The translations under genes were made by a program, and so were the position numbers. From assembly GCA_963749655.1 (NCBI GenBank), contig CAVVOB010000014.1, positions 167,452-231,451 on the forward strand: a DNA stretch of 64,000 nucleotides, written 5' to 3'. Of this stretch, positions 57,598-64,000 are shown piece after piece. Under the pieces are notes generated by a model that worked only from the letters and a program-made list of their open reading frames with translations, searched no databases and was not told the origin of the DNA. The first letter of the stretch is position 1. Each line of letters opens with the position of its first letter. The stretch is from Nitrospirota bacterium. Lineage in GTDB: Bacteria > Nitrospirota > UBA9217.

Positions 57598-59190
57598 ATG
57601 AAGATCAGCACCAAACTACTTATCATTATTGTCCTTGCTACAACTTTAACGGGCATGGCAGCGCTTTACAGCGCCCTTTCCTCTGCCAATCTCCTGGAGA
57701 GCCAGATCAAAGAGAAGTTCATGGCCGTGTCCACCTATGCGATTGAGAAAGTCCACCGGCTCTTTTCCCGGCGCTCCGAGGATATCGCAAAGCTGGCCAA
57801 AGACCCGGTCATCATATCGAGGCGCTCCACTCCTCGTCAGATAACGGAAAAGCTGAGAGACTACAAGCGGCATTTCGGGTCCTATGTTCCTTATGCCTCG
57901 ATAGCGTTCTTCGACCTGAAAAGGAACCGGATCGCCGGCACTGACGGTACCGGCAGCGGAGCGCACGATGGCATCCCGGGATACTGGTCAGCACTGGACA
58001 AAGGCAGAGATTTTGCGCTGGACGTTTCCCGGCCGAATTCGCTGAAGGACGGCGTGTTCCATCTCGCCCACACGGTCAGGGACACAAACGGCGCCGCTTT
58101 CGGAGTCGTCGTGGCTGATATCCCCGTCGAATCTTTGCAGGAGATTGTGAAGCGTCCACTGGGGCTCTTCAAGGTCGACAGCACGTTTAACGTGGATCTG
58201 ATCGATGCGAAAGGTCTGGTCCTTTTTTCCACGCATGACAAGCAGGGCGTGCTCAGGGACCTCTTGCCGGCATACGACGTCATTCAAAAGACAGGGACCG
58301 GAAACGGAGGAGCCGGCACGATACTGCTGCCTGATGCGCCCAGGAAGGAGGACCGGAAGATCGTGGTGTTCGCCCGTGAAGCGAAGGACGCAAGCGACCC
58401 GGGGAATGACTGGACGCTCGTCATTTCCCTTCCAGAGCGGGCGGCCCTGGCGCCGCTCATCGCGCTGAACAACAGGCTTATCGCGGTTTTCATCTGCATC
58501 GGCTTCATCGCGTTCGGCGTCGTCCTGATAGTCTCCCGGACCATAACGAAACCCCTGGCGCGGTTGAGCCTCGCCATAACAGAAGTAGGAAAGGGCAATC
58601 TGGACACCATGGTCGAGGTGTCCTCCTCCGACGAGATCGGCCGGCTTTCCGCTATGTTCAACAAGATGGTACGGGAACTGAGACAACTGCACGATCAACT
58701 GAGAGACGCCGCAACAATAGACAGGCTGACCGGCGCTTTCAACCGGAACAGGATAGACGAAATCTTGCAGCAGGAAGTGGAGCGGACCAGAAGATACCAG
58801 TTCCCTCTCTCGCTGATTCTGTTCGATCTGGACCACTTTAAGGGCATCAACGACACCTATGGCCACCTGAGCGGAGACGACATCCTGAAAGCCGTGGTTG
58901 ACATCGTCAAGGATAATATCCGGCGAACGGACTTTATCGGCCGCTGGGGCGGAGAGGAGTTCATGGTGCTGGCCCCGGGGACCGGCCTGGAGCAGGCCGC
59001 AGAGCTGGCGGACAAGATCAGAAGCCGCATCGAAAGCCATTCCTTTGCAATGGTTGGAGCGGTAACGATCAGTTGCGGAGTGGCTACCTTCAAAGGCGAA
59101 GACAGAAGCATTGACCTCATCAAGAGAGCGGATGACGCCCTCTACCTTGCCAAGGATAAGGGAAGGAACACTGTCGAAATCAACCAGTAA
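57598..59190 (+). CDS. Membrane-bound diguanylate cyclase (Cache-HAMP-GGDEF)
   Basis: Two TM helices, HAMP (DEIGRL..FN.M), DLDHFK.INDTYGH, RRTD I-site, GGEEF. Confidence 0.93.
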   Translation: MKISTKLLIIIVLATTLTGMAALYSALSSANLLESQIKEKFMAVSTYAIEKVHRLFSRRSEDIAKLAKDPVIISRRSTPRQITEKLRDYKRHFGSYVPYASIAFFDLKRNRIAGTDGTGSGAHDGIPGYWSALDKGRDFALDVSRPNSLKDGVFHLAHTVRDTNGAAFGVVVADIPVESLQEIVKRPLGLFKVDSTFNVDLIDAKGLVLFSTHDKQGVLRDLLPAYDVIQKTGTGNGGAGTILLPDAPRKEDRKIVVFAREAKDASDPGNDWTLVISLPERAALAPLIALNNRLIAVFICIGFIAFGVVLIVSRTITKPLARLSLAITEVGKGNLDTMVEVSSSDEIGRLSAMFNKMVRELRQLHDQLRDAATIDRLTGAFNRNRIDEILQQEVERTRRYQFPLSLILFDLDHFKGINDTYGHLSGDDILKAVVDIVKDNIRRTDFIGRWGGEEFMVLAPGTGLEQAAELADKIRSRIESHSFAMVGAVTISCGVATFKGEDRSIDLIKRADDALYLAKDKGRNTVEINQ

Positions 59191-59431: not shown

Positions 59432-60441
59432 ATGAAAAAATGGTTAATGATGGTTGTGGTGCTTTCTTTTTTTCAGCAGGGCAGGCGCTTGCAGACGTTT
59501 CCCATGAAGTGATCATCGGCATTGAGGGCGACTCTTCGACCGAGGTCAAGGATTCCCTGGGGAACCTGTCACTCGATCAGTCGGACAATTACAAGGTCAA
59601 GAACTCGCTGTTCCGCGCGCAGTACACACGGTTCTTCGATCCCTTGAAGGACGATGACACGCCCATCGAGCTCAGGCGGTTCCTGCAGCACCCCACCACG
59701 GTTACGACCGGGATCATGGCCCTCGGCCAGACCGTGGAGGACAATACGATTTCCACGTCCAGGACAAATACCGAGACGCAGGCCTCCTTCCTCGTGCTCG
59801 GCGGAGAATACTTCTTTCCGACCAATACCGGCCTCTTCCTGAATCTCCCTCTTGGCTCCGGGAAGTATAAGCAAAAAGTGAATGACGTCTCGCAGGTCGA
59901 CATGGACCTCGACGCCTCCAACTACGAGCTGGGCGTGCGGCAATATCTGGTTCCGAGCGTGGAAGTGCACCTTGCATTCTCCGGCGATTCAACCAGGGGC
60001 AAGCAGGACAGTTTTGAGACCACCCAAAAACGGGCCCTGACCTTGCTGGGTGTAAAGGGAGTGATCGCAAGCACGGTGGGCCTGTCCTTCGAAATCGGCG
60101 GCGGAAAGAGAAAAGCTACGTCAACAGGAAGTCCGGACGAGGATTTCGATGCCGGCCGGATACAGGCAGGAATAGCGGTCTATGCAGGCAAGAACCTGTC
60201 TTTCTCGCTCGATATTAAAGGCGATGCCGCGAAACAGACGGGAATGGCGTCCGTCGAAGAGCATACCGAAAGCACGGCACGGGCTACGCTTGCTGCGACC
60301 TACTGGTTCAACGAGCGCTTCGGCCTGCAGCTTCCGATCTATTCCGAAACGACCGAAACGAAGAACATCATTGCCTCCCTTGAGGCGAAACACACGGAAA
60401 AGAAAGGCGGGATCGGCCTGTACGCGGCATTCCGCTTCTGA
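59432..60441 (+). CDS. Putative outer-membrane beta-barrel protein (frame break in T run near 59465)
   Basis: MKKWLMMVVVLSFF + SAGQALAD signal peptide; amphipathic strands; ends GIGLYAAFRF. Confidence 0.75.
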
Positions 60442-60503: not shown

Positions 60504-60974
60504 TTAGACGAAACTCTTGTCCTCCGTAAAGGTCCGCGGCGTGACCCTGAAATCAAGGACCTGCCACCCACCCTCCAGCTTGATCAGCAAGAGCTGTATC
60601 TCCGCTGCTCCGTCCTCCATTTCAACGGTCCCGGCGTAGTCAGCCGTGATCTCGTAGCCATACCTCAGCGAAAGCGTTATGGTCGACTGCCCCGAGGAGC
60701 CGCCGTATTCCACGAATTTCCCGAGCTGCCGGAGTTCGTCAAAATAGTCAGCGATGTCGTTATAATCAGCGTCCTCATCGTATTCCTTGCTCGCCCGTTT
60801 CTTCAGCTCCTCGACGCTCCAGTCCGTGGCGATGGCGAGAACCGCTGCGTCGGCGTAGGCCCTGCTCTCCTTGTCCAGTTTCTTTCCATAGAGGAACAGC
60901 GCGCCGGCTGCCGCTGTTGCAAGAAGGATGAGCGCGAGGAACATATACCCGAGTATGACGACGATTTTTTTCAT
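60504..60974 (-). CDS. Membrane-anchored hypothetical protein
   Basis: N-terminal TM helix; ATG overlaps the TGA of the upstream cytochrome (ATGA). Confidence 0.75.
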   Translation of the reverse strand: MKKIVVILGYMFLALILLATAAAGALFLYGKKLDKESRAYADAAVLAIATDWSVEELKKRASKEYDEDADYNDIADYFDELRQLGKFVEYGGSSGQSTITLSLRYGYEITADYAGTVEMEDGAAEIQLLLIKLEGGWQVLDFRVTPRTFTEDKSFV

Positions 60975-62917
60975 TGACCCGGCGGGAGCCCCTGTTCCTT
61001 TATTTCCTGAAGCATTCCTTTGATGCTCCCCGGATCGTGAACTGCCATTGCCTTTGCCTCTTTCCACTTCCGCCGGAGCTTCTTCACGTTCTCGCCCTTA
61101 GCCTCTCTTGCCTTGAGCTTCCGGTCGATCGCGCCGAGCGCAGCCTTCGCCTCGCGGCCCTCTGTATCGAGCTTCCGGTACTTCATGGGATCGGACTTGG
61201 GGATCGAGAAGTCTCCGCTCGTCTTCCAGATGTCCCCCAGCCTCATCCACGCGGCAAAGTGCTCGATCTTCCCACCTTCTGTGGGCCTGATCTTCGTTGT
61301 CGCCTTGATGTCCCTGACGCGCAGTCCCTGTTTATCGGCAACGACCTTCTGACTGCCCGCGAAGGGCTCGGCGCCCTGGTTATCGAAATATCGCCACGTG
61401 ACGCGGCTCACCTGCTCCGCGGACCCGTGGCAGCTTTCGCAGGTGCGGGACTTGCCGAGCGGGTGCGCCACCTCTTCGATCTGGAGCCAGGCGAGATAGT
61501 TATTGTTCCCGCCCGGGAAACTGAACGTGCCGAGCTGGGCATAGGCGTCTCGGGTCTCGCCCTTGGGCCAGCGGAACGTGAGGCCCGGCTTCGGCGAGAC
61601 CGTCTGCTTGATGCCGCCGGCGCTGTTCGGCCAGATCTTGACGGGCATCCATCTCCCCTTCTGGTCCTTGATCAAAACGGGCGGACCCTGGGGTCCGTAG
61701 TAAAGGGAATATTTCTTAAAGGGGTTCGGCTTCGACTCGATGTGTCCCGGGCCCCAGGAGGTCATCTCGTACCCGCCGAGGATCTGCACGTGGCAGGCCG
61801 CGCAGGCCACGTTCTTGTGAACGCTTGCGGCCATGGCCTGCTCCACTTCGACGTGGCAGTCCTGGCATGCGGCATTGCGCTCAATATGGCCCATACCCTC
61901 GGGACCGGTCTGATGGCAGTCCGTGCATTCGAGCTTCTTGGACACGTGCACGTCCTCGGGCAACCCTGCCGGCTCGGAGAAGTCCTTGCCCAAATAGCTG
62001 TCTCCTCTTCTCCGCTCCATGGTGCCGGCATGGCAGACGAACGAGCTCCGTCCGCCGCCGGTGCAGTTGGCAGAAGGAGGAATCCTGCTCATTGCATGGC
62101 TTCCCTTCTCGCGGCTCGGCGCATAGTGGCAATCGAGGCACCCGGCGTGGCAAATATTGCACGCCTTCTGCTTTGCGATCGCCTGATCCTGCGAGAGGGG
62201 AAGATTGATCTCCTCGATGATTCTATTGGTGTTTTCGAATGAGAACCTGTCGCCTTCCGCCCTGCCGACCGGCTGGGTGTCCGCAAAGGACGGGCCTCAG
62301 TTATTAGGGCCGTGAACGTCGTCCCAGACTCGCATGGACCGCTGCCGGAAATTGGCGCCCATGATGCTCGTACTGAACTGCTTCACCTGGTCGGGATGAC
62401 AGGACGATTTACCGCAGGTCTTCTCGGCGATCCGGGGATCGTATCCCAGGGTGAGGGTGTTCCGGTCCTGCCACAGCAGCGTCCCGACGTCATAGTCGAA
62501 AGCCCCGCCTGCGATCCGGGGCAGCATCTCGCGGAGACGGTCGTTGCCCGACGGGAGGAGCTGTTTCACATGCCCCTTGCGGGAAATGATGTTGAGATCG
62601 TTGTCGAGGACGATCAGCTTCAACATGCCCTGGTGCGCCCTGGCGGGATCTTCCGACAGGCCGTTGCCCAGATGGCAGTCGCGGCATTCCGTGTTCGGAT
62701 GACGGGCCTCCTTCTGCACTTGTTCGCGCGTCATCACGAACTGCGGATACCCGAGCGACGTCATCTTTGCCTTGTCGGCATGGCAGGCCACGCAGCGATC
62801 GCTTGATTGATAGCCGGTGTAGAAATATGCGAAGACAAGGACAACGGCAAGCTGGAGAGCAAGGACGGTCATACCCAGCCTGGTCCCGAACCAGTTCCAG
62901 AGTTTTCCAATTGCCAT
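60971..62917 (-). CDS. Membrane-anchored multiheme cytochrome c with in-frame TGA (probable selenocysteine, U207)
   Basis: ORFs 62297..62974 and 60971..62092 share one frame, joined by a single TGA and 68 open codons containing CNICH and CLDCH; 8 CxxCH plus CX4CH and CX9CH. Confidence 0.82.
62249..62296 (-). promoter_or_regulatory. Candidate bacterial SECIS element
   Basis: After UGA: CCC-A-GCC[GGUC]GGC-A-GGG hairpin with a G-first loop starting 27 nt downstream; lower stem gUCCUUU/GGAAGGcGAC. Confidence 0.65.
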
Positions 62918-63197: not shown

Positions 63198-64000
63198 CTA
63201 GAACCTGTATTGAAGCATCGCAGTGACCGTATTGAAATCCTGCGAGTCGGAATTCGCTTCCTTGACGAAGTCGGTACTCGCGTACTCAACGGTTATCCTG
63301 AGACTCTGTCCATCGACATAGTAGTTTATGCCCCCTGCGGTCCATTTTATCTTCTGGTCGAGTATATCGAAAAGCGAGGCAAACCTCCATTCCTCGTATC
63401 TCACAAAGGGCTGCACCTTCGTTCCGGGAATGAGATACCCGGCCTTGGCATACCAGCCCTTCTTCTCTCCGTCTATGCCGAGAGCCAGAGGCTCGGGATC
63501 GCTGCCCTTGTAGGCGTTGTCGAAAGCGGTTTCCAGGTACGCGGCAGAGGCTGTGACAGCGCCTCCTCCAAGAGGATAATTGAAGAAGACATCCGCGGTC
63601 CAGGCGGAATAGCTTTTCGCTCCTGTCTTCGCCGTGACGTCGCTGTAGACCGCATCGGGCTCATACTGACCGCCGCCGCCGATTGTAAGGATCTTCTGCT
63701 CTCCGAGGTACGTCCCCTTGTAGCCGTATGCATACTCGGGTTCGAGCAAGGATACATGGACACGCCCCGTATACATAAATGAACTCCTGGGCGCATTGAC
63801 AATATCATCCCTTCCCTTTGAGACCTCCAGGCGATACTGCGATTGTATCTCTGGAATGTTGCCCCAAAGGACCAGCCCCGTGTCACGGCTGTGCTTGAAG
63901 GGCGTATAGATGAAGAGGGAGCGGTCCAGGGAAAGAGGTTCGAAACAGTCTTCGAGATTTTCCCTGGTGAGCTGTATCTTCTGCTTTCCTGCGTAGATGC
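63198..64000 (-). CDS. extI: ExtI-like outer-membrane porin, 3' part (starts beyond the window)
   Basis: LTRENLEDCFEPLSLDRSLF, RDTG..LWGN, YGYKGTYLG, GEKKGWYAKAGY, NYY..GQ.LR, terminal LQYRF; recalled similarity to Geobacter ExtI. Confidence 0.72.
   Translation of the reverse strand, partial: IYAGKQKIQLTRENLEDCFEPLSLDRSLFIYTPFKHSRDTGLVLWGNIPEIQSQYRLEVSKGRDDIVNAPRSSFMYTGRVHVSLLEPEYAYGYKGTYLGEQKILTIGGGGQYEPDAVYSDVTAKTGAKSYSAWTADVFFNYPLGGGAVTASAAYLETAFDNAYKGSDPEPLALGIDGEKKGWYAKAGYLIPGTKVQPFVRYEEWRFASLFDILDQKIKWTAGGINYYVDGQSLRITVEYASTDFVKEANSDSQDFNTVTAMLQYRF

Follow-up and report, generated by a model that had tools for sequence, protein, structure and literature searches.

The question raised by this locus is whether a TGA codon that divides a gene for a multihaem cytochrome c is a stop or a codon for selenocysteine (Sec), and, if it is the latter, what kind of enzyme the undivided gene encodes. 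The locus lies near the end of a 64,000-nucleotide (nt) stretch of DNA (hereafter, the window) from the draft genome of a Nitrospirota bacterium (assembly GCA_963749655.1, contig CAVVOB010000014.1), and the gene occupies positions 60971–62917 of the window on the minus strand, as do all features of the gene described below. It forms a single frame of 648 codons plus a stop, running from an ATG (62915–62917) that is common to all full-length homologues to a terminal TGA (60971–60973), and its sole internal stop is a TGA at 62297–62299, residue 207, in the context VHGPNN-U-GPSFAD. A mechanical list of open reading frames (ORFs) cuts the gene in two, giving one piece that ends at the TGA and a 373-residue piece whose start is an internal ATG at 62092; between the two lie 68 codons (62093–62296) that are open and hold the haem motifs CNICH and CLDCH. 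A first-pass annotation of the window had described just this arrangement, two ORFs of one frame parted only by the TGA with two CxxCH motifs in the open codons behind it, and had proposed that the gene be read through as a Sec-containing multihaem cytochrome. The arrangement is as described, on the minus strand, and comparative sequence evidence leads us to conclude that UGA codon 207 very probably encodes Sec, which would make this a genuine selenoprotein gene. Our best overall explanation, to which we assign a probability of roughly 0.8, is that the product is a Sec-containing cytochrome of about ten haems, similar to octahaem tetrathionate reductase (OTR), that works by a chalcogen reductase mechanism.

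Orthologues of 630–650 residues run through this position uninterrupted, with cysteine (Cys) at the column of the UGA. A search of protein collections yielded 450 relatives among 7718 candidates, and these formed two groups, full-length proteins of 620–650 residues and proteins of ~400–430 residues (72–81% identical) that start just past the TGA. All 22 of the database homologues that cover the UGA column have Cys there, and C207 was invariant in an alignment of 76 sequences. The same Cys was invariant in 15 cluster representatives, at identities down to 28%, these distant representatives having been drawn from a library search that gave only 184 matches at E ≤ 0.001 among 1.84 billion entries, and it was kept in nine of nine paralogues at 36–43% identity, so that Sec or Cys occupies this column throughout the superfamily. 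Matches at E ≤ 1e-30 were found in 39 of 61 related genomes, with those from the window's own taxonomic family mostly carrying exactly one in-frame TGA. Over 111 loci (L021–L131), the UGA column read TGA in 70, TGC in 27 and TGT in 12, the two remaining loci being partial and without the column, and removal of duplicates left 83 distinct proteins, 48 of the Sec type and 35 of the Cys type. The expectation attached to the Sec reading in the first-pass annotation, that homologues would have TGA or Cys at this column, was thus borne out, and on its further question of whether relatives carry two separate genes, we found that the gene was a single protein in every Cys-type relative.

We next placed these sequences on a tree, which was built from the 78 of the 83 rows with at least 590 residues, the five shorter rows being dropped. 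Sec occurs in two clades of this tree: 38 of the 41 rows of the window's own clade are Sec-type, and six further Sec rows lie within a subclade of 15–16 rows in a distant clade (~47% identical), such that the tree requires at least five changes between Sec and Cys. Of 301 Nitrospirota genomes sampled, 110 had an orthologue, and within the window's own family the figure was 50 of 63. Among the matches in this sample that have at least 65% identity and span residue 207, one in-frame TGA was present in 46 of 49 by manual count, its position being confirmed only for the loci that were fetched. Many related genomes (G007, G021, G022, G028, G029, G035 and G037; loci L139–L147) also carry one to three Cys-type paralogues of 600–700 residues with nine plain CxxCH motifs, and a search of the source genome with the cytochrome as query at E ≤ 1e-30 found no such paralogue. 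Some distant members (P0140–P0143) are longer, at 712–1152 residues with long N-terminal extensions; P0143 has extra CxxCH motifs, and two distant members have low-complexity stretches rich in Pro and Met.

The sequence behind the UGA folds into a structure that resembles a Sec insertion sequence (SECIS). In the minimum-free-energy fold, an extended stem-loop spans 62240–62299, from the UGA to the 3′ end of its lower stem, and the apical hairpin (62260–62277) consists of a 7-bp stem with one internal mismatch (62271–62277 paired with 62260–62266) capped by the loop GGUC (62267–62270). The stem begins at the 20th base after the UGA and the loop at the 27th, which locates more exactly the GGUC hairpin that the first-pass annotation had put 27 nt after the UGA. 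In Escherichia coli fdhF, SelB touches the G and the U of the apical loop. Across the 42 Sec genes of the close clade, synonymous entropy was 0 to 0.39 bits at codons +7 to +12, within which ACC, CCG and GTC were each used in 42 of 42 genes, whereas those comparison codons that vary, from 45 upstream to 75 downstream, mostly had 0.5–2 bits. When 47 distinct stretches of 69 nt were compared, 91.8% of the cells of the apical helix were paired, and for the entire proposed structure the value was 79.0%, as against 45–53% when the 3′ partners were slid by one to three columns. One locus (L051) showed a compensatory change from G-C to U-A through two synonymous substitutions. In the distant clade, the six Sec genes have, equally far from the UGA, a differently spelled hairpin of 8 bp whose loop is 3 nt long and in which two pairs show compensatory changes, and the GGUC loop has been lost in three Cys-type genes that are nested within the Sec clade. 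The same loop sequence recurs behind other UGA codons of this genome, at the tip of an 8-bp hairpin after the UGA of selD and 18 nt after the UGA of an orthologue of the selenoprotein MccSep. As a side observation, in two metagenome runs it is exactly at the conserved hairpin (window positions 62241–62270) that contigs from relatives break or overlap, as would be expected if this stretch is identical among co-occurring strains and the assembly graph branches there.

The first-pass annotation had also left it to be checked whether the genome has selA, selB, selC and selD, and all four are present in the source assembly (39 contigs, 86.6% complete). The matches to selA (611 bits), selB (367 bits) and selD (355 bits) lie above the curated cut-offs, with selD being of the Sec type and carrying an in-frame TGA of its own, and the tRNA-Sec (selC) scored 62.8 bits, likewise above its cut-off, and was assigned the anticodon TCA by ARAGORN. 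selA adjoins selB, and the tRNA-Sec gene lies ~4 kb downstream of selB; these three and selD are on different contigs (C39:55411–63047 and C21:1685–2611, respectively).

Against the Sec reading stand two other accounts of the TGA. Were the TGA a true stop, the locus would encode a 206-residue membrane protein with two to three haems and a second haem protein of ~370–440 residues, or would be a split pseudogene. Because TGA terminates the cytochrome gene itself, it remains an ordinary stop codon in this genome, and gene callers do split the gene in the same manner, with many products of ~400–430 residues starting after the TGA (such as P0012 and P0016) and the window's 373-residue product being P0010. 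However, the point of division is one codon that is aligned with an invariant Cys, the 68 codons past it are not only open but conserved and contain two invariant haem motifs, the TGA has been kept in 48 distinct sequences from two clades, and the hairpin behind it is under synonymous constraint. The downstream piece, moreover, has no export signal and yet bears c-type haem motifs, which, judging from cytochrome c biogenesis, would need maturation in the periplasm. For these reasons we hold a true stop to be highly unlikely. The other account, that a mistake in sequencing or assembly turned TGC, TGT or TGG into the TGA, draws on the draft state of the genome and on related long-read assemblies in which the gene has frame breaks (L074, L084 and L089, with shortened N-termini), but because the same TGA is carried by 47 other distinct sequences from other assemblies, an assembly error is very unlikely, and it is the less probable of the two. 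Contigs of relatives (~90% similar) from two sequencing runs span 62241–62917, and none of the differences listed falls on 62297–62299, with 157 more being unlisted; furthermore, an in-frame TGA occurs in two other genes of this genome, selD and MccSep. Five sequencing runs were listed as sharing words with the window, each with less than 0.2 of the words and with no RNA run among them, and the identical contigs found in two runs do not cover the TGA.

Translated through the UGA, the protein has the length of ~648 residues, the N-terminal membrane helix and the eight CxxCH motifs given in the first-pass annotation, and in addition two variant haem motifs, an invariant CX4CH (residues 168–174) and an invariant CX9CH (residues 285–296). 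Because paralogues or OTR-family proteins have a plain CxxCH at these places, both appear to be haem sites, and the protein is therefore likely to carry about ten haems. The hydrophobic helix at residues 13–37 (62807–62881), which is seen both as a hydrophobic stretch and as a helix in an AlphaFold2 model, is a putative signal anchor or uncleaved signal peptide. Motif 1 (C42–H46; 62780–62794) directly follows this helix and is invariant in the orthologue alignment, and motif 2 (C78–H82; 62672–62686) is invariant in both alignments. Motif 3 is the CX4CH (C168–H174; 62396–62416), which is a plain CxxCH in the paralogues and in 13 of the 15 representatives and corresponds to the first CxxCH of OTR. 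It is followed by the invariant motifs 4 and 5 (C253–H257 and C260–H264; 62126–62161), which a profile alignment with hhalign matches to the second and third CxxCH of OTR, and by motif 6, the CX9CH (C285–H296; 62030–62065), which is equivalent to the fourth; here C285, R290, C295 and H296 are invariant, as are R303 and R304, which come after the motif. Motifs 7, 8 and 9 (C331–H335, C351–H355 and C372–H376; 61790–61927) are likewise invariant and correspond to the fifth, sixth and seventh CxxCH of OTR. The invariant motif 10 (C493–H497; 61427–61441) lies inside a predicted beta-sandwich (residues 383–540; 61298–61771), and the chain ends in a predicted tail of three helices (residues 577–642; 60992–61189), for which there were only generic helical-bundle matches. 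Outside the haem motifs only five His are invariant (H95, H274, H324, H367 and H485), and M186 is invariant as well. The AlphaFold2 model had a predicted local distance difference test score of 84 and a predicted template modeling score of 0.85. Being haem-free, it had low confidence at residues 285–306, the CX9CH region, where the chain would wrap around a haem absent from the model. Pfam gave only generic multihaem domains, with Cytochrome_C7 at residues 321–376 in ATG numbering (340–395 of P0001, which has a TTG start), and NCBIfam gave only sub-threshold matches to the protein, at 25 bits against cut-offs of 200.

To place this architecture among known enzymes, we compared it with the available structures and curated families. 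OTR (1sp3) was the top match of the model in VIA (Z 9.4, root-mean-square deviation (rmsd) 3.8 Å over 252 residues, model residues 76–575) and the only match other than helical bundles, most VIA rows matching the C-terminal tail; Foldseek gave an E value of 1.6e-3 to 1sp3 and no PDB match at E ≤ 0.001. We then aligned ten genuine OTR-family genes from related genomes and compared the profiles using hhalign, which returned a probability of 97.75% and an E value of 1.3e-12 over 209 columns, with seven haem motifs in register. Sec207 falls between the motifs aligned to the first and second OTR haems, just before motif 4. The OTR model TIGR04315 (cut-off 375 bits) had no match at E ≤ 0.01 in the source genome or in the protein, and its matches in the 301 Nitrospirota genomes were other genes on other contigs, of which 20 were above the cut-off and none of those listed at E ≤ 1e-10 had an in-frame stop. 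As predicted from the profiles and the model, then, the core of the cytochrome is a remote homologue of OTR that lies outside TIGR04315. With OTR it shares the fold, the order of seven haem motifs and an eight-haem core, to which it adds the membrane helix, two N-terminal haems, the CX4CH and CX9CH motifs and the C-terminal helical tail. The available text of a recent review lists the OTR family TIGR04315 with a ‘GenBank annotated’ Sec form (PMC13188914); on that review's account, Sec occurs in that family too.

Other multihaem enzymes resembled the cytochrome less closely. The MccA structures from Wolinella succinogenes (4rkn and 4rkm) gave Z scores of 5.9 and 5.5 over 286 and 278 residues in VIA, with a poor rmsd of 7.3 Å; the fold match takes in most of the chain and reaches the C-terminal helices, and is weaker than that to OTR. 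MccA is an octahaem haem-copper sulfite reductase with a stretched CX15CH motif and two active-site Cys that hold copper, whereas the cytochrome has CX9CH together with the invariant C207 and C285, and the PDB search produced no sequence match to MccA. Searches of PDB sequences with two profiles gave only weak matches to NrfA and NrfH, and none to OTR, MccA or MccSep, the best being to the nitrite reductase NrfA at E 2.2e-4. As for NapC/NrfH, the cytochrome has a helix at residues 13–37 and then a CxxCH at 42–46, a region well apart from profile positions 338–376, where the weak NrfH match falls.

The first-pass annotation had suggested that the protein differs from ExtKL, the Sec-containing multihaem protein of Geobacter, and we find the two to be distinct. 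In the available text of PMC13510729, MccSep/ExtKL (GSU2937-2936, Geobacter sulfurreducens) is an experimentally established polysulfide-reducing multihaem selenoprotein of ~49 kDa with five haems, a cleaved signal peptide and a Sec near the C-terminus, in an Ig-like domain with the context DG-U-P. The cytochrome, by comparison, has about ten haem motifs in 648 residues, an N-terminal helix and Sec207 inside the haem domain (NN-U-GPSF). The source genome has an MccSep orthologue on contig C38 (C38:159650–160927; L136:1480–2793), which scored 575 bits against the curated model NF040886 (cut-off 250), has its own in-frame TGA, and is nearly identical to the published Geobacter peptide in the residues that flank Sec. 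NF040886 found this orthologue and two weak places only, missing the cytochrome gene, and had no match to the cytochrome protein at E ≤ 0.01; nor is there real similarity between the cytochrome and the MccSep orthologue of the same genome, the best BLASTP match having an E value of 0.01 over 78 residues. Because a true MccSep coexists on contig C38, the organism carries two unrelated multihaem selenoproteins. The two are nevertheless alike in several respects, each being a predicted periplasmic multihaem cytochrome c with a single UGA-encoded Sec that gene callers misread as a stop, with Sec and Cys variants, a haem domain and a beta-sandwich, and with an occurrence in Nitrospirota and other sulfur-metabolizing anaerobes.

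These comparisons suggest how the protein could work. SelB and tRNA-Sec would decode UGA 207 on one mRNA, directed by the stem-loop with its GGUC cap, and the N-terminal helix would anchor the protein at the inner membrane, or export it across that membrane, so that it faces the periplasm. Haem 1, five residues past the helix, and haem 2 would receive electrons on the membrane side, the quinol pool being a possible source, and the electrons would run along the haem chain to the haem that is equivalent to the second haem of OTR. There, the selenolate would attack an anionic chalcogen compound (polysulfide, tetrathionate, thiosulfate or selenite), and the selenium-substrate adduct would then be released by reduction. 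We read the protein as an enzyme that would reduce sulfur or selenium compounds in the periplasm because of the position of Sec before the motif aligned to the second haem of OTR; a role in sulfur or selenium redox chemistry had also been suggested in the first-pass annotation. By analogy with MccSep the logic is likely the same, namely a selenolate beside a haem. The invariant R290, R303 and R304 would fit a pocket for an anionic substrate, although they do not discriminate among anions. As to the substrate itself, we would put roughly even odds, by analogy, on a sulfur or selenium compound, the other half covering nitrogen oxyanions, sulfite together with a metal site, and mere electron transfer.

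We must also weigh a different account in which the gene is the same selenoprotein with another chemistry: Sec or Cys at 207, perhaps with the C285 region, would be an axial ligand of a haem or, like the two copper-holding Cys of MccA, a ligand of a metal, or the enzyme would reduce nitrite, hydroxylamine or sulfite, or the protein would serve mainly as an electron conduit. With no more than five invariant His beyond the haem motifs to serve about ten haems, a different ligand is needed for some of them, and M186 and C207 are both invariant. The weaker structural match to MccA (Z 5.9) and the position of NrfA as the best PDB sequence match also favor this account, as does the promiscuity of OTR towards nitrogen and sulfur substrates, which is raised in the discussion of PMC13510729 as far as its text is available. 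Yet it is typically at nucleophilic redox residues that Sec takes the place of Cys, genes of dissimilatory sulfur metabolism occur in the organism (dsrA, 560 bits), and the three Arg fit an anionic pocket, even if anions are not told apart by them. In MccSep, furthermore, there is a direct precedent for a Sec that acts next to a haem on S-S and Se-O substrates (available text of PMC13510729). On balance, we consider a different chemistry to be a minority prospect, though clearly a more serious one than either a stop or an error.

Several observations weigh against the reading of the gene as a Sec-containing, OTR-like chalcogen reductase, and they concern the hairpin, the position of Sec and the substrate. 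The energy of the single-sequence fold was no better than that of shuffled sequences (z = -0.99; 32 of 200 shuffles equal), so that the case for the hairpin beyond chance is one of conservation, and no Rfam family matched positions 62150–62350 at E ≤ 10. A long lower stem was considered and dropped, its covariation being no better than that of shuffles or slid controls, and we claim the apical hairpin alone. Cys-type orthologues are common across the homologue set, and the fold can therefore do without Sec. Around Sec207 the hhalign alignment is of low confidence, so the placement of Sec at the catalytic haem, which in OTR is the second, is only inferred, from the order of segments. In 2004, Mowat and colleagues reportedly found that the unusual lysine ligand of that haem comes from the segment between the first and second haems. 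By its title, a 2007 paper from Atkinson and colleagues is said to deal with the reduction of nitrite and hydroxylamine by the OTR family, and because that family also reduces these compounds, the substrate may instead be a nitrogen compound. Lastly, the conserved neighbors of the gene over 78 loci are radA, rodZ, RNase R, fabF, DAHP synthase, a TRIC-type channel and a small membrane protein, with no redox partner among them; these neighbors are housekeeping genes in both clades and are silent on the substrate and the electron donor.

Around the gene in the window, the sole gene that is translationally coupled downstream of the cytochrome encodes a 156-residue membrane protein (60504–60974, minus strand) of no Pfam family, its ATG overlapping the cytochrome stop (ATGA), and a similar ORF of 158 residues lies downstream of the cytochrome gene in 13 Sec-type loci. 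Upstream, an ORF at 63198–64000 (minus strand) has a 28-bit match to Porin_O_P and, as outer-membrane proteins do, finishes with a C-terminal F; it is cut off by the edge of the window, where contig C14 ends as well, and relatives have radA upstream instead. Convergent with the operon is a 333-residue ORF at 59440–60441 (plus strand) without a Pfam family that ends in AAFRF and may be an outer-membrane beta-barrel, and a membrane diguanylate cyclase with dCache, HAMP and GGDEF domains lies at 57598–59190 (plus strand). In the downstream flanks of L052–L131 there are 151 short minus-strand ORFs with no Pfam match (median 125 residues, ~5 per locus, 32 loci), which may be shadow frames of a repetitive gene.

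Taken with the published record, the cytochrome represents a selenoprotein family that had not been listed before, one that belongs to the OTR/MccA-like multihaem superfamily and is distinct from MccSep. No account of this cytochrome family as a selenoprotein was found in the literature and curated models searched; the supplementary lists of PMC13510729 and of the surveys cited in PMC13188914 were outside the search and might name members. A table in the 2026 review names three haem-related selenoprotein families, ExtKL, the GSU2204 family and the Sec form of TIGR04315, and the Pfam families that match the cytochrome do not occur in the available text of that review (PMC13188914).

Haem selenoproteins have only just been established by experiment, with MccSep in 2026, and the present family would add another that is structurally unrelated to it. 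This large, well-conserved family is systematically misannotated as two genes called “hypothetical” or “cytochrome c3 family”, and its re-annotation alters the predicted respiratory equipment of widespread uncultured bacteria of groundwater, soil and sediment; the Sec column and the SECIS pattern are ready for curators to use in a new family model. The natural pairs of Sec and Cys proteins within one family also make it possible to test why an enzyme would use selenium beside a haem. We tentatively raise the further possibility, less likely to be right than wrong, that Sec was here recruited to a multihaem active site for a second time, independently of MccSep, in a membrane-bound reductase of some ten haems that derives from OTR and occurs in nearly all members of one family of uncultured Nitrospirota, and that it ligates or tops the catalytic haem iron; we know of no precedent for a natural haem ligated by His and Sec. 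If this were true, the organism would have two unrelated haem-selenium enzymes side by side for the respiration or disproportionation of sulfur compounds.

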